Positions 3,392 to 42,690 of a DNA stretch of 64,000 nt are shown here, one piece after another (the stretch's first letter is position 1; every line of letters begins with the position of its first letter). The DNA comes from Gammaproteobacteria bacterium (GTDB taxonomy: Bacteria > Pseudomonadota > Gammaproteobacteria > Acidiferrobacterales > SZUA-150). The stretch is from the NCBI GenBank assembly GCA_029880545.1, contig JAOUOD010000007.1, positions 134,354 to 198,353 on the forward strand. Reading direction: 5' to 3'. Position numbers and translations under genes: made by a program. The notes under the pieces are model-generated. The model saw only the letters and a list, made by a program, of their open reading frames with translations. It had not been told where the DNA came from and made no database searches.

Positions 3392-3437
3392 GGGTCGGAC
3401 CAGCGTAAGCTTATGTTTCTCTGTTTAAAACCATTCA
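3392..3437. repeat. solo left end (~46 bp) of the 277-bp TIR repeat family
   Basis: GGGTCGGACCAGCGTAAGCTTATGTTTCTCTGTTTAAAACCATTC matches the left ends of the copies at 5975 and 10987. The shared flank GCTGAGC precedes it, as in copy A. Similarity stops after ~46 bp. Confidence 0.7.
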
Positions 3438-3558
3438 ATTAAACAAACGGGGTCTAAACAATCGGGATCAGATCACAGTTTTCTCTAATGCAGGAGTTAT
3501 TTCTGATCCCAGACCGGTTTCGTGCAGCTGGTCGGTTTTTTCTGAGCGGAGGTGTTCA

Positions 3559-4047
3559 ATGAATGAATGGGGAAAATGGCAGTTAATCAAGGCCGGGTTC
3601 TGGCTTGGCATTGGTTTTATTGTTCCTTCAGCAGCGGTCCTGCTGGCGACCACTGTTGGCAGTGTGTGGATAATGCCGACAGCAATGGAGGCTTCCGGCT
3701 GGATGGGTGGTGAGGATGCAACGGATATGACCGAAGATTTTCGGTCACGATACGACAAGAGTGATCAAGTCAGGATTGTCTCCTATCGCGAGACCAGGAC
3801 CGGGAACCGCTTGCTGGTCTTGGGCGAGATTGAAAATGCAGGCAAGGGCAATGTGACGTCGGTCCACCTGGAAGCAGAGCTGAAGGACAAGAATGGAAAG
3901 TTTGTCTATGAGTGTTCGGACTACATCAACCGGAAGCTGGCGTCCGGTGATAAAGAGAACTTCCAGATCAGTTGTGGCTGTGGCAGTAACCCGTTACCTG
4001 AGTACGCGACAGTAGATGTTCGGGTGGTGAGTGCCAACAGTTTTTAG
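3559..4047 (+). CDS. hypothetical membrane-anchored protein
   Basis: 162 aa. GGAGG lies 6 nt upstream of the ATG. One N-terminal TM segment (LIKAGFWLGIGFIVPSAAVLLA) is followed by a ~100-aa beta-rich domain. Confidence 0.65.
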   Translation: MNEWGKWQLIKAGFWLGIGFIVPSAAVLLATTVGSVWIMPTAMEASGWMGGEDATDMTEDFRSRYDKSDQVRIVSYRETRTGNRLLVLGEIENAGKGNVTSVHLEAELKDKNGKFVYECSDYINRKLASGDKENFQISCGCGSNPLPEYATVDVRVVSANSF

Positions 4048-19601: not shown

Positions 19602-20111
19602 CTAGTAGTGAACAGAAACCGTTACAGTGTCCTGATAGAAACCGGGAACCTGCATTGGCAGGAAGCTGTAGTTACTGTAGCCATAGACGATGCGAAGTTC
19701 ATCCACTCCTGTGCCAACACCGGCAATACTCGTACCTTTCGTGGTGGCTGCAAAATCCTGGTCACCCCAGAAGTCATTCCAGGTGCCGATCTTGTGCAGA
19801 CCGTAGATGATCAGATTGCCCAGGCCGTCGCCCATGCGGCGCTCCAGGGCATTGCTCACGTTCAACCCTCCATCCATGGCAATGTTGTAGGCAACCGTGG
19901 GTGAACAGGTCACTCTTATTGAGCCTTCAGCGGTGTTGACGGAATTGGTATGGATTCCGAAATCGACCGGGGTAGTGGATACAAGGCACAATGGCTCGAC
20001 CGTGGCACTAACATCAAGTGAGCCGGTGGCCGTTCCGGCTTGTGCCGGTCCGATCAGCGCCACGCCTGTCAAGGCGACGGCGCCGGTAAACAGATGTTTG
20101 GTTAATTTCAT
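19602..20111 (-). CDS. SCPU domain major pilin (CsuA/B-like)
   Basis: 169 aa. The signal peptide is ...LIGPAQA. GSLDVSATVEPLC and the terminal ...YQDTVTVSVHY are typical of the SCPU family. It is the first gene of the cluster. Confidence 0.8.
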   Translation of the reverse strand: MKLTKHLFTGAVALTGVALIGPAQAGTATGSLDVSATVEPLCLVSTTPVDFGIHTNSVNTAEGSIRVTCSPTVAYNIAMDGGLNVSNALERRMGDGLGNLIIYGLHKIGTWNDFWGDQDFAATTKGTSIAGVGTGVDELRIVYGYSNYSFLPMQVPGFYQDTVTVSVHY

Positions 20112-20327
20112 GTTGATCTCCTTGTCAAATAGGCATTGAGCATCCGGGTAGTCCCCCGCCTGGCGACAGCTGTCCTGAATTGATTCGTCGGAGGATGCGG
20201 TAATGCTACATGACCGGGAGTTACAGATTGGTTACCGATATCGGTGCGCGTTATTGTGATTCAGCGAATGAATAACAATCATCCAGGGGCAATAATCCGG
20301 TTATTCCTGGTAACGAATACGCTGTTT

Positions 20328-35280: not shown

Positions 35281-35727
35281 GTGCAAATCTGGGTTGATGC
35301 TGACGCCTGCCCGAAAATTATCCGGGAGATACTGTTTCGTGCTGCCGAGCGCACGCAAACGCCGTTGACCCTGGTGGCCAACCAGCTAATCCCGACCCCG
35401 CCATCTCGCGTCATCCGGGCCTTGCAGGTACCGGCCGGTTTCGATGTTGCTGATAATGAAATAGTGAAGCGCGTCTGTGCCGATGACCTGGTAATAACCA
35501 GTGATATACCCCTGGCATCGGAGGTTATTGAAAAGGGCGCAGCTGCGCTCAGTCCTCGCGGCGAGCGCTTTACCCCGGAAAACATCAAGTCCCGCCTGTC
35601 CATGCGCGACTTCATGGACAGCTTTCGCGCCAGCGGCATCAATACCGGCGGACCGGCGGCCATGAGCCAGGCGGACCGACAGAATTTCGCCAATTATCTT
35701 GACAGCTGGCTGGCCAAGTCACGCTAG
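35281..35727 (+). CDS. yaiI: YaiI/YqxD family protein (UPF0178)
   Basis: 148 aa. [24 protein letters not shown]...[32 protein letters not shown] is near-colinear with my memory of E. coli YaiI. Confidence 0.9.
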
Positions 35728-35766
35728 CAGGCAGGAAATTTTTCTGTCATGCCATATACTTGTCGT

Positions 35767-36267
35767 ATGTTGCGTACTGACCGCCGTTTGCCGGCAACAA
35801 TAACCGGTTTTACCCTGATTGAGCTGATGGTGGTTCTGCTGGTCATGGCCATTCTTGCGGCTATGGCGATACCGATCAATTTGCCGTTGACCGGCCGCAA
35901 GCAGATTCATCATGCCTTGCAGATCCCGGAAGCCTACAAGGGTGCCATATACGCGTTTTACCGCAAGCATGGCCGGTTTCCCGGGACCAACGAAGAGCTG
36001 GATATACCCGGGCCGGATCAGTTGATCAGCACCACGGTCACCAGCATGACCCTGGAAAACGGGGCCATGCATGTGCAACTGGGTAACTCGGTGCTGAATG
36101 ACCTGAAGGGAAAAATTATTACTATCCAGCCCTTGGTGGTGACCGGCAGTCCGCGCAGTCCCGTTGACTGGTCCTGCGCCTACATGGTGCCACCACCGGG
36201 TATGGAGAAGGTAGGAGAAAACCGGACTGACGTGGATCGACGTTTTGTGCCTTCCGGGTGTCGATAG
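35767..36267 (+). CDS. type IV pilin (PilA/PilE-like), orphan
   Basis: The leader plus class III signal is MLRTDRRLPATITG/FTLIELMVVLLVMAILAAMAIP. There is a C-terminal Cys pair (WSCAY...PSGC). Confidence 0.85.
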   Translation: MLRTDRRLPATITGFTLIELMVVLLVMAILAAMAIPINLPLTGRKQIHHALQIPEAYKGAIYAFYRKHGRFPGTNEELDIPGPDQLISTTVTSMTLENGAMHVQLGNSVLNDLKGKIITIQPLVVTGSPRSPVDWSCAYMVPPPGMEKVGENRTDVDRRFVPSGCR

Positions 36268-36373
36268 GCCATTGCCGTGAACCGGAAGAATTTGCGAGAT
36301 TGCCAGCTATTATATAGAACCTGACCGGGAGACAGGCGGTATGCATAACAAAAGGTTTGCGGGGAATTGCTTC

Positions 36374-36811
36374 ATGAAGATCGGCTTGCCACTGTTGCTG
36401 GCGGTTATGCTTAACGCCTGCGTATTCACACCGGTAGTGGATGAACGGGTGGTGGATGGCTGCACGCTCAAGACCAAGCGCTGGACCATCAAGACCTGGT
36501 CCGCGGTAACCGAGCGCGATATCAAGGACCAGTGCCGGGGGGATGTCGCGAATGTATTGTGTGCCGTGGCTGCATTGGTAGGAACCGGCACGGCAGTGGT
36601 ATCCGGCATCGTCTCGGGGTCGGTCTACCTGGTTGGCAACAGCGTGCATTGGCTGGAAGCGCAGGGAAAGTGTGATGATGGCCTGCTAAACCGTGCGCGA
36701 AAATCTTTCGCCGATCCGCTCGAAGACGACGGCGCCATTGCAATAAATAATGATGAGCAGCTCAAAATGATTATTCGTGAGAAGTCGCAAACAGGATCTA
36801 TCAGTTTTTGA
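36374..36811 (+). CDS. hypothetical lipoprotein, paralogue 1 of a tandem pair
   Basis: The lipobox is LAVMLNA-C. There is an internal Gly-rich hydrophobic segment (VAALVGTGTAVVSGIVSGSVYLVGN) and the motif HWLEAQGKCDDG. Confidence 0.65.
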   Translation: MKIGLPLLLAVMLNACVFTPVVDERVVDGCTLKTKRWTIKTWSAVTERDIKDQCRGDVANVLCAVAALVGTGTAVVSGIVSGSVYLVGNSVHWLEAQGKCDDGLLNRARKSFADPLEDDGAIAINNDEQLKMIIREKSQTGSISF

Positions 36812-36846
36812 TCGCCCGTGACTGGCGAGCTGATGAAGGGGGAGGT

Positions 36847-37293
36847 ATGAGGGCTTATAGTCTGTTCCGGTATCGCGTGATGAACGTGATCGCGATGATT
36901 GTCCTGGCTGCGTTCTTGAGTGGCTGCCTGTTTGTGCCGGTATCCCAGGAACACCATAACCCTGGATGTGACCTGGTTACCAAGCGCTAGACTGTCGAGA
37001 TCCGTGAAGACGGAGGGCTTATTGGTTGCGGTGGCCACGAGTGTATTGCGGTTCTGCTGGGAGTGGCTGCAGTTTCCGGCGTCGTTTCCGGTTCCATTGC
37101 CCTGGTCGGCAACACCCTGCATTGGCTTGAGACCCAGGGAAAGTGTGATGACGGCATGCTTAAGCGTGCCGCCGATTCCTTTGTCAGGCCACTTAAAGAA
37201 GAGGGTGGCGTGGTCATTGATAGCGAAGAGCAGTTGAAAGAAATAATAAAGGAAAAATCGCCAGATCAGGGCGCGACCGTATCTATCGAATAA
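36847..37293 (+). pseudogene. paralogue 2 of the tandem lipoprotein pair, interrupted by an in-frame TAG
   Basis: The lipobox is AAFLSG-C. A TAG at 36988-36990 sits where paralogue 1 has Trp (TKRWT versus TKR*T). The same frame continues to 37293 and encodes VSGVVSGSIALVGNTLHWLETQGKCDDG, colinear with paralogue 1. Confidence 0.7.
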
Positions 37294-37351
37294 ACCCGGG
37301 AACCATCGTCCCTGCTTTGTGCCATATCATCGACCACGAAGCAGAACGACA

Positions 37352-38082
37352 ATGAACCTTCCCGGCGCATTGGTGCTGGCCGTGCTGTTGCTGCCTGTCA
37401 GTGTGTCGGTGCGGAACAGCAAGTCGGCACCCTGGTGCTGAAATCGGGAACCGGGCGGGGCTTTGTCGAGCTGTATACATCGGAAGGCCGCAGCAGTTGC
37501 CCGCCGGCGGAACGATTCCTGAACGTGTTTACCCGGCACAAGGATCTGTGGCGAACCTGTATTCCGCTGGCGTTTCATGCTGACTCCCGGAACCACCTCG
37601 GCTGGAAAGATGGTCCGCCAGCCCGGCCTGCAACAAACGCCAACGGCGCTATGCGTGCCGACATCCAACCAGTTTTGTTTATACACCGGCCTTTGTTGTC
37701 AACGGGAAGTCTTGGCGACCCGGCCGTTTCAAAACTTCGCCGGCTCCCGGTTCCGCTAACCCGGGATCGCGGAATGTCTCTGTCAGTGGCAAGAAACTTT
37801 CTGCCCGTCTCGATGGCCGCCACCAGGCATCGTCTGGCTGTTGCCATGCCGGGTTTTGACCCGCAATCCAGGACAACCGTTGGCGAGAACCGGGACAGCC
37901 TGGTTCGCCACGATTTTGTTGGTTTGGGCTCGAAGTCGGCAAACGCTGATATCCCAAGCTGGTCGGAGACGTTGCCCGAGTCCGGCATCGCCAACCGGGC
38001 AAGTTGGTTTGCCGCGGTCGCGTGGGTGTCGCGTCCGAATGAGTTGTCGCCGATCCAGCCGATTGCGGGGTACCTGCCGTAA
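37352..38082 (+). pseudogene. DUF1223-family thioredoxin-like gene, decayed by at least 3 frameshifts
   Basis: The signal peptide (37352-37441) is in one frame. FVELYTSEGRSSCPPAE...HLGWKD is in a second frame. ...KRQRRYA...VYTPAFVVNGKSW is in a third frame (from ~37611, stop at 37857-37859). GENRDSLVRHDFVGLG...AVAWV is back in the second frame. The first Cys of the usual GCSSCPP motif is Arg. Confidence 0.7.
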
Positions 38083-38125
38083 AAATGAGCATTTCCCCTG
38101 TTGTTTCTCTAGTAAATCTATATTG

Positions 38126-38268
38126 CTGTATCAAAGTTGTATAAGTATTTCCAAGTTTTTGGCAATCTGTACAATCTTTGTAAAACTATGTTATAAAGCA
38201 ATTTAGAGTATTTCAGCGCGAATCGTCTTGGTATATTGTACAAGTACTGTACAAGTTCTGTCCAAGAG
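38126..38268. promoter_or_regulatory. three clusters of phased 11-bp direct repeats (TGTACAAG core): candidate CarH operator(s) overlapping the operon promoter
   Basis: Cluster C (38236-38268) is TTGTACAAGTA|CTGTACAAGTT|CTGTCCAAGAG. Cluster B (38167-38199) is CTGTACAATCT|TTGTAAAACTA|TGTTATAAAGC. Cluster A (38126-38158) is CTGTATCAAAG|TTGTATAAGTA|TTTCCAAGTTT. An extended -10-like TGgTATATT lies at 38229-38237. Confidence 0.65.
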
Positions 38269-38277
38269 GTAAGTGTC

Positions 38278-39219
38278 ATGAAGCACAAAGACGTAATTAT
38301 TCGCGGCGGTATCGTTGTTTTTGCCTGGTTGTTGGCGGCCTGCGGTACGACAGCCAAATTGTCGGCCGGGATGGATCGGGGTGAAATCGTGCGTTGGCAG
38401 CAAAGCGCGGTAGAAGGAGACCTGAAGGTGACCATGCACTGGGTCATGCCGGTATTACCCGGACCGCACCCGACCCTGATCCTGAATCCCGGCAGGGGGC
38501 AAAACGCAGAGGATTTGCTTGGTGAAGCCGCTCGATTTGCCGGCAATGGCTACCTGGTTGTAGCGCTGGACTATGAGCGCAAGATCCACGGGCAGTTTAC
38601 TACCACCATGTTCCCGTGGCGGCAGCAGGATGACGCCCGCCTGGTGCTGGCGTTGATAAAATCCAACCCGATGGTGGACAGGGATCGCATTGCTGCGGTC
38701 GGCTATTCGCTAGGCGGTGCCCACGCGTTGTTGATGGCGGCCAGCACATCCGGTGATATCAAGGCAGTGGTGACGTATTACCCGATGACGGATTTTCCGG
38801 CATGGCGCGACGAAAAGGAAAAGAGCTGGATCTGGCGCGTGGTGTTCAGTTTCGTGCGTGAGAGCTACAACTCTGAATCGGAGCAGCATAATGATGCTAC
38901 GCACAATGCCTTGCTGGCGCGCTATTCGGCGATCAATTATGCTGATGTCATCCATTCACCGGTTTTGATAATTCATGGTGATGATGATGGTATTGCACCA
39001 CTGGAATATTCGCGCAGGTTGCACAACCGGTTGCGCAGTAACGGCCGCAGTGCAAGTGACCTGCTGGTAGTTAATGGTGGCGACCATGCATTCAATTTCA
39101 AGCCATCAGGCAACACGGAAGAGTCCTGGCGCATTGCGCTTGGCTGGCTTGACCGGCACCTCGAGCCATCGGTCATGGCCATGAATTCGGTTGCAGACAA
39201 GTCGCGCAAATCATTTTAA
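38278..39219 (+). CDS. lipoprotein alpha/beta hydrolase (dienelactone hydrolase / S9-like)
   Basis: The ATG at 38278 follows AGAGG. The signal is VVFAWLLAA-C. Motifs are the nucleophile elbow GYSLGG and IIHGDDDGIAP...GGDHAF. Confidence 0.8.
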   Translation: MKHKDVIIRGGIVVFAWLLAACGTTAKLSAGMDRGEIVRWQQSAVEGDLKVTMHWVMPVLPGPHPTLILNPGRGQNAEDLLGEAARFAGNGYLVVALDYERKIHGQFTTTMFPWRQQDDARLVLALIKSNPMVDRDRIAAVGYSLGGAHALLMAASTSGDIKAVVTYYPMTDFPAWRDEKEKSWIWRVVFSFVRESYNSESEQHNDATHNALLARYSAINYADVIHSPVLIIHGDDDGIAPLEYSRRLHNRLRSNGRSASDLLVVNGGDHAFNFKPSGNTEESWRIALGWLDRHLEPSVMAMNSVADKSRKSF

Positions 39220-39232
39220 CGGAGTATTGAAA

Positions 39233-40111
39233 GTGAGCCAGGAACTGTTTCCCATCCGCACCGTGTCAGAGCTGACCGGGGTCAACTCGGTTACCTTGCG
39301 GGCATGGGAGCGACGCTACGGCCTGATCAAGCCGGCACGAACAGAGTCCGGACATCGGCTGTACAGCGCGGCACATGTTGAACGTATTTTCGAAGTCCTC
39401 GCCTTGCTCGAGAAGGGTGTGTCCATCAGCCAGGTGAAACAGAGTTTCGACTCAAGGGAAGAAAAGCAGCAGGAGCTGGATGTGTTCGCCCGGACCCGGG
39501 ACAAAATGTTTGACGCCGTGACCCGGTTCGATGATGCGACACTGGAGGCGGTTTATACCGGGGCGCTGTCCGAATTTCCTGTCGACATGATTACAGCGAA
39601 CATTATTTTGCCATTGCTGGAACGCCTGGGTGAGCGCTGGCGTGAACAACCCGGTGGTATAGCTGAAGAGCATTTTTTCGGCTTTTATTTGCGCAACAAG
39701 CTGGGTGCCAGATTCCATCATCGCCAGTCACGCGCATCAGGCAAGATGCTGTTGATGAGTTGCCTGCCCGGAGAGCAGCATGATATTGGCCTGTTGCTAT
39801 TTGCCCTGGCTGCCCATGAAACGGGATACCGGGTGACCGTGCTGGGTGCTGACCTGCCACTGACTGAGTTAGAGGCCGCCGCCAGGCGAATTCAGTGTGA
39901 TGCGATAGTGGTGTCCGGTTCCGCAGGCCTGCCGGCCAGCGTCGTGGAGCAGTTGACGGAGTTGATCAGTCGCGTCCAGGTACCCTTGTTTGTCGGGGGT
40001 CGTTTTGCCGTAAGTCATCGCGATGCCATCACAGCAGCCGGCGCTGACGTGCTCGGAAATGACCTGGGTCGAGGACTGGCGATGCTGAGAAAACGGGTAC
40101 CGCCTGAATAG
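39233..40111 (+). CDS. carH: MerR-family, B12-binding light-responsive regulator (CarH/LitR type)
   Basis: The GTG at 39233 lies 8 nt after GGAG. The MerR HTH is IRTVSELTGVNSVTLRAWERRYGL. Wx9EH is WREQPGGIAEEH. The B12-binding ExHxxG is EQHDIG, followed by a Rossmann-like VTVLGADLP...DAIVVSGS. Confidence 0.8.
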   Translation: MSQELFPIRTVSELTGVNSVTLRAWERRYGLIKPARTESGHRLYSAAHVERIFEVLALLEKGVSISQVKQSFDSREEKQQELDVFARTRDKMFDAVTRFDDATLEAVYTGALSEFPVDMITANIILPLLERLGERWREQPGGIAEEHFFGFYLRNKLGARFHHRQSRASGKMLLMSCLPGEQHDIGLLLFALAAHETGYRVTVLGADLPLTELEAAARRIQCDAIVVSGSAGLPASVVEQLTELISRVQVPLFVGGRFAVSHRDAITAAGADVLGNDLGRGLAMLRKRVPPE

Positions 40112-40206: not shown

Positions 40207-41631
40207 ATGGGGCAGGAAATCGCGCACAGTCATTTCCGCAAGCACGACTTTATGGAGTTCGATCAGCGCCTGCGCAAGGAAACCGCGTTGCTCGGAGACG
40301 TTTTCCGTGATCGCGCGTTTGGCGAGACGCATCCGGTAGCCGGGTTTGAAGTGGAGGCGTGGCTGGTGGATCGGAATGGCCTGGCAATTCCTGATAACCC
40401 TCGTTTTCTTGATGCTGTGCACAGCGACCTGGTAACACCGGAACTGGCACGCTTCAATGTCGAGCTCAATGGCATGCCCCTGGCGCTGGCGGGCAAAGCC
40501 CTGTCCGAAATGCAAAACGAATTGGAATGTACCTGGACCCGTTGCCAGCAGGTGGCGTGGCAGGAACTGGACGGCTGCTTGCTGGCGATCGGCATATTGC
40601 CAACTGTGCGTGAGCAATCCCTGGTTTTGGAGAACATGTCCACCATGACCCGTTACCGGGCATTGAATGAGTCGGTGCGCCGCATGCGCAAGGGTGAACC
40701 GATCAAGCTGGAGATACAGGGCAGGGAACTGCTTCGCACCTGGCATGAAGATGTCATGCTGGAGTCGGCGGCAACATCGTACCAGCTGCACTTGCAGGTT
40801 CCGCAGAACCAGGCGCTGCGCGCCTATAACGCGGCCATTATCCTGTCGGCGCCAATGGTGGCCATCAGCGCCAATTCACCCTACCTGTTTGCCCATGACC
40901 TTTGGGATGAAACCCGTATCCCGGTGTTTGAACAGGCTGTTTCGGTAAATACGGAAGACTATGCGCCGCGACAACGGGTTACCTTCGGCAGCGGTTATGC
41001 GAATAACTCCCTGTTCGAATGTTTCGAGGAAAACCTGGCGGAATACCCGATCCTGCTGCCGGAACATCTTGGCGACAATACAGGGGAGTTCCGCCACCTG
41101 CGTCTGCACAATGGCACCGTATGGCGCTGGAACCGGCCGTTAATCGGTTTTGATCGCGAGGGCGTGCCGCACTTGCGCATTGAGCACCGGGTTATGGCGG
41201 CAGGCCCGACCATTGTCGATATGTTTGCCAATGCCGCGCTGTTTTATGGTCTTGCGCAGAGCTTTATGACCATGCCGGCACCGCCGGAATCACGCATACC
41301 GTTCAGTCATGCGCGCACCAATTTTTACCGCGCTGCCCGCGATGGTCTGGATTCACGCTTGCGCTGGTTTGATGGCCATGAAATTTCCGCACCGGAACTG
41401 TTACGGGCGCTGATTCCGCTGGCGCGCGAAGGTATGCACCAGCTGGACATGGACCATGCCGATATAGAGTTGTACCTTGGCATTATCGAAGACCGGCTGG
41501 CGACCGGGCAAAATGGCTGCGCCTGGCAACGTCAGTACGTCTCACGACACGGGCTCGATATGGCCGCCCTGACGCTGGCCTACATGGAGCGGCAAAAGCA
41601 GGGTAGTCCCGTACACGAATGGACGATTTAG
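40207..41631 (+). CDS. glutamate-cysteine ligase family 2 (GCS2/YbdK-like) carboxylate-amine ligase
   Basis: 474 aa. GFEVEAWLVD...ELARFNVELN...SYQLHLQV...SANSPYLF...RIPVFEQ fit the GCS2 family signature blocks as I remember them. Confidence 0.75.
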   Translation: MGQEIAHSHFRKHDFMEFDQRLRKETALLGDVFRDRAFGETHPVAGFEVEAWLVDRNGLAIPDNPRFLDAVHSDLVTPELARFNVELNGMPLALAGKALSEMQNELECTWTRCQQVAWQELDGCLLAIGILPTVREQSLVLENMSTMTRYRALNESVRRMRKGEPIKLEIQGRELLRTWHEDVMLESAATSYQLHLQVPQNQALRAYNAAIILSAPMVAISANSPYLFAHDLWDETRIPVFEQAVSVNTEDYAPRQRVTFGSGYANNSLFECFEENLAEYPILLPEHLGDNTGEFRHLRLHNGTVWRWNRPLIGFDREGVPHLRIEHRVMAAGPTIVDMFANAALFYGLAQSFMTMPAPPESRIPFSHARTNFYRAARDGLDSRLRWFDGHEISAPELLRALIPLAREGMHQLDMDHADIELYLGIIEDRLATGQNGCAWQRQYVSRHGLDMAALTLAYMERQKQGSPVHEWTI

Positions 41632-41655
41632 CCGGATCTTGCAGAGTGAATTGCA

Positions 41656-42690
41656 ATGTTGACTGTTTATGAAAACTTGCCGGATGGGTTACTCGCCTGT
41701 GAAGCGCACGAGCTTCACCAGGTGTTGCCCGGGCCAAGCCTGGTTCATCTTGACGGCCAGCGCCAACAACCGCTGTACGTGTCGGTATTGCTGCATGGTA
41801 ACGAGGCAACCGGCTGGCAGGCGGTGCGCGAAGTACTGAAAAGGTATACAGACACGCAACTGCCGCGAGCGCTGAGTCTGTTCATTGGCAATGTCGAAGC
41901 AGCGGCACAGAACCAGCGCTTTCTTGATCACCAGATGGATTACAACCGCATCTGGAAAACGGTCGATATGGCAGACCAGACCGAAGAGCATAAAATGGCA
42001 CAGCAGGTACTCAAGGCCATGGCCTTGCGTAACCCGTTTGCCGCCATCGATATTCATAATAATACCGGCATCAATCCACATTACGGCTGCGTCAACCGGC
42101 TGGATCACCGGTTCTTGCACCTGGCAACACTGTTCAGTCGTACGGTAGTGTATTTCACGCAACCGGACACAGTGCATTCCCTGGCGTTTGCACCCTTGTG
42201 TCCCTCGGTGACCGTGGAGTGCGGCCAGGCCGGGCAGGCGCACGGTACCGAGCATGCGCGTGATTTTATTGATGCCTGCCTGCGCCTGTCGACAATACCG
42301 GATCACCCGGTGGCACAGCATGACATCGACCTGTTTCATACGGTCGCCATTGCCACGATCCCGGCCGGCATCAGTATTGGTTTTGGTGATGAAGAAAAGC
42401 CGTGCGATGTGCGATTTGTTCGCGACCTGGATCACCTGAATTTTCGTGAACTGCAGCGCGACACCCGTATCGGTTCGGTTGCCGAGGGCGTAAGTCATTG
42501 CGTTGCCGTACACGATGCCAATGGCCATGATGTGACCAATCGCTATTTTGACTGCAGTGATGGCGAGCTCAGGATTGTTACGCCGGTCATGCCGTCCATG
42601 CTGACAGTGAAGGAGAAAGCCATAAGGCAGGATTGTTTGTGTTATCTTATGGAGCGACATCCTGTAGTTAATGGAGTCTATTCCGGGTAG
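41656..42690 (+). CDS. succinylglutamate desuccinylase/aspartoacylase (AstE/AspA) family zinc deacylase
   Basis: 344 aa. LYVSVLLHGNEATGWQAV is the HxxE zinc motif. IDIHNNTG and TVECGQ are typical family blocks. Confidence 0.75.
   Translation: MLTVYENLPDGLLACEAHELHQVLPGPSLVHLDGQRQQPLYVSVLLHGNEATGWQAVREVLKRYTDTQLPRALSLFIGNVEAAAQNQRFLDHQMDYNRIWKTVDMADQTEEHKMAQQVLKAMALRNPFAAIDIHNNTGINPHYGCVNRLDHRFLHLATLFSRTVVYFTQPDTVHSLAFAPLCPSVTVECGQAGQAHGTEHARDFIDACLRLSTIPDHPVAQHDIDLFHTVAIATIPAGISIGFGDEEKPCDVRFVRDLDHLNFRELQRDTRIGSVAEGVSHCVAVHDANGHDVTNRYFDCSDGELRIVTPVMPSMLTVKEKAIRQDCLCYLMERHPVVNGVYSG

Follow-up and report, generated by a model that had tools for sequence, protein, structure and literature searches.

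Operators of the CarH type consist of tandem 11-bp repeats of the consensus nAnnTnnACAn that overlap the promoter at its -35 or its -10 element; Thermus has three such repeats, B. megaterium four, and Myxococcus five (PMC8156234, PMC9304148). The Thermus CarH operator structures (5C8D/E/F) are those of Jost et al. (2015), as summarized in PMC8156234 and PMC9304148. The operators of Bacillus megaterium and Myxococcales CarH/CarA are plastic in that their three to five repeats mix direct repeats (DRs) with degenerate units (dr), and even one or two DRs flanked by dr units are bound (PMC9304148). The class II LitR proteins of Pseudomonas (PplR1 and PmlR2), which are without a Rossmann B12 domain and need a LOV partner, use inverted TRTACA-N12-TGTAYA sites, two per promoter, one over the -35 element and the other between the transcription start and the ATG (PMC9758184). 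Light-responsive operons are known to include genes for photolyase, a CMAS/UfaM-like methyltransferase, and RudS (PMC11417400).

Here we describe a gammaproteobacterial locus in which a gene for a CarH-type regulator follows a gene for an α/β-hydrolase and in which three clusters of 11-bp repeats (A, B, and C) precede the pair. The locus was analyzed within a 64,000-nucleotide stretch of DNA, hereafter the window, which is part of a 199-kb contig, and the features considered are listed in Table 1. The regulator has its domain order and its Wx9EH and ExHxxG motifs in common with Thermus thermophilus CarH, cluster C resembles the Thermus operator in consisting of three tandem nAnnTnnACAn units, and the context appears to be autoregulatory in both cases. 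The two proteins are, however, only about 35-40% identical, and whereas the Thermus operator is one block of three DRs over the -35 element, the window has three separate blocks across approximately 145 bp, with the motif on the antisense strand and lying over or after a candidate -10 element. The cargo differs as well, being carotenoid genes in Thermus and a lipoprotein hydrolase here. The mixture of DRs and dr units in Bacillus and Myxococcales fits the DR-DR-dr modules of the window, but those operators are contiguous, whereas the modules of the window are split by conserved gaps. Thus, CarH with direct-repeat operators is known; what is unusual here is the conserved three-module layout and the hydrolase cargo.

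The two-site arrangement of Pseudomonas class II LitR is comparable to clusters B and C, and the TRTACA hexamer is common to both systems. In both, too, the regulator is not encoded by the first gene of the operon (it comes after RudS in Pseudomonas and after the hydrolase in the window), and it is this first gene that the sites precede. A search for TRTACA-N12-TGTAYA gave no match in the window, and the same search recovered paired sites in seven Pseudomonas loci. In six loci (L067, L071, L074, L076, L078, and L079, at approximately 3850-3990) two such sites lie 50 bp apart upstream of RudS. In the Pseudomonas RudS-LitR-photolyase operons the first N12 site contains a TTGACT -35 element, which reproduces the published class II architecture. 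Another gammaproteobacterial MerR/B12 regulator is PhrR of Halomonas, which Romine et al. reportedly described in PNAS in 2017 as a B12-dependent light regulator linked to photolyase. The Halomonas homologues in our set (L059-L080) are carH-photolyase pairs, and these PhrR-type proteins are only 35-40% identical to that of the window.

Table 1. Features of the hydrolase-carH locus and of related loci. Positions are those of the window unless a locus is named.
Feature	Position	Strand	Basis and remarks
Intergenic region, regulatory	38083-38277	.	AT-rich, 195 bp, between DUF1223 gene and hydrolase gene
Cluster A	38126-38158	-	A1 38126-38136, 3/5; A2 38137-38147, 5/5; A3 38148-38158, degenerate
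Sigma-70-like TTTCCA-16-TACAAT	38148-38175	+	consensus scan; overlaps A3 and B1
Cluster B	38167-38199	-	B1 38167-38177 and B2 38178-38188, core-perfect DR pair; degenerate third unit
dr0, degenerate pseudo-repeat	38225-38235	-	fourth in-phase unit upstream of C1; TATACCAAGAC (bottom strand)
Candidate -10, TGgTATATT	38229-38237	+	window only; read from sequence
Candidate -10, TATTGT	38234-38239	+	three-way comparison
Cluster C	38236-38268	-	C1 38236-38246, 5/5; C2 38247-38257, 5/5; C3 38258-38268, 4/5
Ribosome-binding site AAGAGG	38264-38269	+	8 nt before ATG (38278); kept in L081 and L082
α/β-Hydrolase, DLH / Peptidase_S9-like	38278-39219	+	Pfam; lipoprotein-type N-terminus (LLAAC)
CarH/LitR class I-type regulator	39233-40111	+	MerR HTH, four-helix bundle, Rossmann B12 domain (Pfam)
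GCS2/YbdK-like ligase	40207-41631	+	Pfam and NCBIfam; 95-bp gap after carH
AstE/AspA-like deacylase	41656-42690	+	Pfam and NCBIfam
Hydrolase homologue, L016	2657-3616		
Hydrolase homologue, L082	1288-2214		
Hydrolase homologue, L088	3501-4454		
TGT-units from ATG, window	A -152, -141; B -111, -100, -90; C -42, -31, -20		
TGT-units from ATG, L081	A -153, -142, -131; B -112, -101, -91; C -43, -32		
TGT-units from ATG, L082/L083	A -151, -140; B -111, -100, -90; C -42, -31		

The regulator and its neighbors

The regulator gene begins 13 bp past the stop codon of the hydrolase gene at its annotated start (39233), an alternative being a TTG at 39191. The Pfam domains of its product are MerR_1, B12-binding_2, and B12-binding. 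A MerR-type winged helix is recognized by PF13411 and PF00376 at residues 21-87, the segment LRxWERRYG...RTxxGHRLY is conserved in the alignment to the DNA-binding domain of Thermus CarH, and the recognition helix and wing of the two proteins are nearly identical. A four-helix bundle is recognized by PF02607 and carries the Wx9EH motif (W-REQPGGIAE-EH), which aligns with that of Thermus; its residues W136, E146, and H147 do not vary among 30 homologues. The Rossmann B12-binding domain is recognized by PF02310 and holds the lower-axial histidine of the E/DxHxxG motif (GEQHDIG), in which E181, H183, and G186 are likewise invariant in the 30 homologues. Of the relatives with solved structures, Thermus CarH (5C8D/E/F, 3WHP) is the best match, 5C8D aligning over the full length with an E-value of 3e-33. 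The top-scoring NCBIfam model is NF052513 (TransRegCarH), but its score, 130 bits, lies below the equivalog cut-off of 400; for this reason we class the protein as a divergent member of the class I CarH/LitR family and not as a strict equivalog. With the CarH domain layout and the cofactor motifs in place, the assignment of the second gene of the operon to the CarH type in the preliminary description holds.

We identified orthologous loci elsewhere. In one locus (L081) the hydrolase is 96% identical and the upstream gene context is shared with the window; in another lineage (L082/L083) the hydrolase is 61% and CarH 54% identical, and carH again comes after the hydrolase gene. In the window a DUF188 (YaiI/YqxD) gene is located 2.5 kb upstream of the operon (35281-35727), whereas in L082 it is directly downstream of carH (3393-3848); the hydrolase-carH core has thus stayed constant while the neighborhood was rearranged. 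The DUF1223 gene on the other side of the intergenic region (37435-38082) matches its Pfam model over the first approximately 50 residues only; its product is 52% identical to the L081 copy, though the adjacent DNA is about 84% identical, and the gene may be fast-evolving or decaying.

It is uncertain whether the ligase and deacylase genes (40207-42690) are members of the operon. The gap that separates them from carH contains two hairpins without T-tracts, one (GGTACCGCC...GGCGGTAC) spanning the carH stop codon and the other formed by GCTGGC...GCCAGC, and it holds no operator. Neither a GCS2-like nor an AstE-like gene was found near carH in any of 80 loci with regulator homologues, and the pair is also absent from L082. 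Given this absence of synteny, the two genes cannot be tied to the regulon. A photolyase, CMAS, or RudS gene was likewise not found in the 64-kb window.

The hydrolase is another matter. Lipoprotein-type α/β-hydrolases, with the lipobox LLAAC or LLVGC, recur in distant genomes in linkage with CarH-type operators or with carH itself. In L016 a 43% identical homologue is part of a divergent string of genes (Sel1-like, glutathione peroxidase, hydrolase) that begins 24-56 bp beyond the distal operator. In L088 a 47% identical homologue lies behind TTGACA-17-TAGATT with a DR pair directly after it and a second DR pair approximately 118 bp upstream, and there is no carH on the contig. DR pairs were not found at four loci with more distant hydrolase homologues (L084-L087). 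These linkages suggest that the lipoprotein hydrolase is a conserved member of a light regulon.

Three clusters of 11-bp repeats upstream of the hydrolase gene

The intergenic region has a GC content of 33%, as against 54% across the window, and is the only stretch of the window with at least three TRTACA/TGTAYA hexamers per 200 bp. Cluster C matches the pattern TGTnnAnnTnn in triplicate with no mismatch; it is the sole such match in the 64 kb, where shuffles lead one to expect 0.01. On the bottom strand it scores 14/15 against three copies of nAnnTnnACAn, the unique top score among about 128,000 positions. Core-perfect pairs (T..ACA twice, 11 bp apart) were sought on both strands of the window and occur in clusters B and C only. 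The whole intergenic region holds three of them, a number reached by none of 5,000 local dinucleotide shuffles; in shuffles of the local composition of 38083-38235, against which the pair of cluster B was judged, a core-perfect pair appeared in 72 of 5,000. Cluster A alone has no significance within the window in the local shuffle test. The only other three-unit match to the consensus at 12/15 is at 20099-20131 on the minus strand (TATTTGACAAG, GAGATCAACAT, and GAAATTAACCA), and it contains no core-perfect pair. A riboswitch or small RNA as the explanation for the region was ruled out by an Rfam search, which found no RNA family in the window.

All nine 11-mers that the preliminary description had quoted from these clusters are present at the coordinates it gave, and the four that it had named as exact fits to the CarH consensus each score 5/5. 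The consensus that it gave for the Thermus repeats agrees with the published one (PMC8156234, PMC9304148). Its account of three clusters of three contiguous units with a TGTA(C/T)AAG core needs correction, however: the clusters are real, but the exact core is found in only three of the nine units, A1, A3, and B3 are degenerate, and B3 follows at an offset of 10 bp in place of 11. A2 (TACTTATACAA on the bottom strand) is the sole perfect unit of cluster A in the window. The third unit of B is better read at the 10-bp offset as ATGTTATAAAG (38188-38198), and C3 is mainly the ribosome-binding site. Each region has at its base a tandem pair of 11-bp DRs (wAnTTRTACAw on the bottom strand) with a degenerate third unit. 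Upstream of C1, dr0 holds most of a candidate -10 element. Tandem nAnnTnnACAn repeats in which one or two good DRs or more are joined by dr units, the hallmark of a CarH-type operator, are therefore present.

Conservation of the clusters among relatives

Clusters A, B, and C are kept within 1 bp of position in all three lineages (window, L081, and L082/L083; Table 1). B1 and C1 are 69 bp apart in each of them, and A1 and B1 are 41, 41, and 40 bp apart, respectively. Between the window and L081, identity is 86% in A1-A2, 100% in B1-B2, 90% in B3, and 95% in C1-C2 (cluster B as a whole being identical at 32 of 33 positions), as compared with 37-45% in the flanks and linker and 69% in the B-C spacer. 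Between the window and L082, C1-C2 is 90% identical and the spacers are 35-47% identical. In place of the degenerate A3 of the window, L081 has a perfect DR amid surroundings that are about 40% identical, and hence two perfect DRs in cluster A. The unusual B2 variant TTGTAAAA is retained in all three lineages. C3 is without TGT in L081 and L082 and is conserved there as the ribosome-binding site. Since the three clusters stand at fixed distances from the ATG while the spacers between them have diverged, the repeat phasing upstream of orthologous operons, on which the preliminary description had staked its reading, is conserved in L081 and L082/L083. Its count of three candidate operators rather than one agrees with this result as well.

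Nucleotide identity between the window and L081 is 83.6% over 35530-38031 and 95.7% from 38167 to 39250, and the jump begins at 38167, the first base of B1. The step has the appearance of a junction, mosaic or recombinational, within the regulatory region, and part of the conservation in L081 therefore reflects mosaicism or recent exchange. The comparison with L082 is independent of this junction.

A metagenome scan for the B...C geometry (TGTACAAN3TTGTAAAA-N49-53-TGTACAAN4TGTACAA) returned two hits, L089 and L090, neither of them a promoter. Both were rejected as unrelated satellite-like tandem arrays: they are long 11-bp arrays of the GTCTTGTA(A/C)AA type (L089, 1-260; L090, approximately 2018-2290, reverse complement), are without carH context, and are probably satellite DNA. 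Arrays of this kind mimic the CarH repeat phase and are possible false positives in pattern-based searches for operators.

The three-way comparison also bears on the promoter. The extended -10 element TGgTATATT that the preliminary description had reported is present but specific to the window, its counterparts being TGGACTATT in L081 and TGAACTATT in L082; TATTGT is the sole -10-like hexamer conserved in all three promoters. The sigma-70-like match at A3/B1 is a weak candidate, as it is not kept in L081 or L082, and a positionally conserved sigma-70 consensus promoter, sought across the window, L081, and L082, was not found. Cluster B overlaps the sigma-70-like match, as C1 does the candidate -10 elements TATATT and TATTGT, but promoter occlusion is conjectural, given that no sigma-70 consensus is conserved and that the extended -10 is peculiar to the window. 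A promoter-like TGGACA-18-TACAAT lies on the minus strand inside cluster C (38264-38235), pointing antisense toward the DUF1223 gene. It was rejected as an antisense promoter: the orthologues have spacers of 19-20 bp and poorer hexamers, and we take the match to arise incidentally from the sequence of the repeats.

To place the clusters in a wider context, we turn to the 80 loci with regulator homologues, which are 35-54% identical. In dozens of these loci, three-unit matches of at least 12/15 are concentrated in the 300 bp that precede carH, mostly in the same orientation as in the window. Perfect units occur at 5.6 per kb between -100 and 0 of carH against a background of approximately 0.5 per kb, an enrichment of about 10-fold. 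Among bottom-strand TnnACA cores, 56 pairs are spaced by exactly 11 bp, as compared with two to three pairs at other offsets; offsets of 22 and 33 bp are weak. This pattern identifies the conserved module as a DR pair with a weak third unit, and the unit consensus of the clade is wAnTTRTACAw. The 11-bp-phased CarH-type motif of the preliminary description is thus enriched upstream of carH homologues, and operators of this type are both linked to carH and conserved in related genomes.

The proximal operators of five loci (L013, L016, L018, L024, and L042) have one common layout, which cluster C matches: a TTGACA -35 element, a -10 element within the first unit, two strong DRs, and a ribosome-binding site in the last unit. 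In this layout the ATG comes only a few bases after the ...CAAGAG with which the last repeat ends, an ending noted in L013 and L016 in particular. The family's carH genes adjoin light-stress genes, namely those for photolyase, a CMAS/UfaM-like methyltransferase, and RudS. In some loci a second operator serves a divergent gene (photolyase in L013 and L018; the Sel1/GPx/hydrolase string in L016), and L007 and L024 have two operators without a divergent gene. A spacing of 106-117 bp between two operator pairs is seen repeatedly in the family, with a divergent gene in some cases and without one in others.

Within approximately -330 to 0 of carH in loci L004-L057, the distances between distal and proximal DR pairs cluster at 43, 55, 106-108, and 116-117 bp. 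These distances are helically phased (Rayleigh p ~0.001 at 10.3-10.5 bp for n = 14 from lineages that are not fully independent), a hint that binding at those loci may be cooperative or involve looping. The window's distances of 69 and 110 bp fall outside the family phase, B to C being about 6.5 helical turns, and a simple same-face looping model taken over from the relatives is therefore not supported for the window.

Repression by CarH and other readings of the clusters

We consider it probable, at roughly 0.78, that the intergenic region of the hydrolase-carH operon contains three regions bound by the CarH-type repressor that the operon encodes. As the repeats match the CarH binding site, the promoter is very probably self-regulated and switched by light. 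The mechanism that we infer, which takes in binding, its dependence on B12 and light, the position of the promoter, and stoichiometry, is modeled on CarH of Thermus, Bacillus, and Myxococcales. In the dark, AdoCbl-CarH would occupy C, and probably also B and A, and would prevent transcription of the hydrolase gene and carH. Site C would span the candidate -10 element, the start region, and the 5' leader as far as the ribosome-binding site, such that bound repressor would block RNA polymerase; sites A and B might provide extra occupancy or cover upstream promoter activity. In the light, the Co-C bond of AdoCbl would be photolyzed, the oligomer would dissociate, and the hydrolase and CarH would be expressed. 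Production of CarH from the operon that it represses would amount to negative autoregulation.

It is unlikely that cluster C is the only working CarH operator and that A and B are nonfunctional remnants (left by duplications, for example, or by a divergent promoter that was lost) or chance matches in AT-rich DNA. This reading would account for the insignificance of A in the window, the nominal significance of B, and the degenerate third units of both; it also draws on the relatives, in which the second operator often serves a divergent gene, there being none in the window, and on the 96%-identity block starting at B1, which confounds the conservation seen in L081. But L082/L083, with spacers only 35-47% identical, keep the DR pairs at -151/-140 and -111/-100 and the exact 69 bp between B and C, and remnants would not be expected to retain the odd B2 variant in three lineages or to acquire a perfect DR in place of A3, as in L081, when the surrounding sequence has drifted to about 40% identity. 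Nor does a second operator depend on a divergent gene, as L007 and L024 illustrate.

Two further readings concern what the repeats are for. That the encoded regulator or a paralogue binds the TRTACA repeats but is switched by something other than AdoCbl photolysis, being a B12-independent repressor like CarA or a LitR under a partner photoreceptor such as LOV, is very unlikely in light of the complete Rossmann B12 domain, the invariance in the clade of Wx9EH and ExHxxG, and an operon without a LOV or antirepressor gene. The layout, too, is that of the 11-bp direct repeats of AdoCbl-CarH, with no class II N12 pattern in the window, even though the TRTACA hexamer is also used by the B12-independent, LOV-controlled PplR1 and PmlR2 (PMC9758184) and the Pseudomonas loci yielded class II N12 sites. 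The unmet NCBIfam equivalog cut-off and the case of Myxococcus CarA, which has the B12 motif yet does not need B12, speak for this reading. Scarcely probable at all is the proposal that the TGTAYAA elements are mainly promoter elements (-10-like boxes or UP-like DNA of tandem promoters) and not repressor sites. What is conserved is T5 and A8-C9-A10 of the CarH consensus in strict 11-bp phase, not TAnnnT, and the motif tracks carH genes across the 80 loci; the top-strand -10-like hexamers TACAAT (38170-38175) and TATAAG (38140-38145), the sigma-70-like match over A3 and B1, and the placement of a -10 element inside a repeat unit in relatives would favor the proposal, but the promoter-like matches are not kept in the orthologues.

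Returning to three binding regions for CarH, we also entertain, as a rather doubtful extension, the idea that the three DR-pair modules assemble a higher-order CarH-DNA complex, which would be a mode of repression not described for CarH, with light-controlled output of the hydrolase. Such a complex could consist of several tetramers, or of tetramers bridging two repeat pairs, with the DNA wrapped or looped. The geometry of the modules (41 bp from A1 to B1, 69 bp from B1 to C1, and 110 bp from A to C) is conserved within 1 bp; it differs from that of the family, being lineage-specific and yet strictly conserved, and hence leaves room for a stereospecific higher-order complex. If this idea were true, it would mean tighter repression in the dark and a sharper light switch, and light would control a new product, namely a lipoprotein hydrolase of the periplasm or the outer membrane.

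Finally, the locus extends the direct-repeat operator logic of CarH, as defined by structures, to an uncultured gammaproteobacterial clade and provides a clade-specific consensus (wAnTTRTACAw, a DR pair with a dr unit) backed by about 80 loci. It nominates an uncharacterized lipoprotein α/β-hydrolase family as a recurrent member of the light regulon, beside photolyase, CMAS/UfaM-like enzymes, and RudS. That separate operator modules can be conserved at fixed spacing matters, moreover, for the question of how DNA is read by a tetramer with four heads and for designing optogenetic promoters based on CarH.
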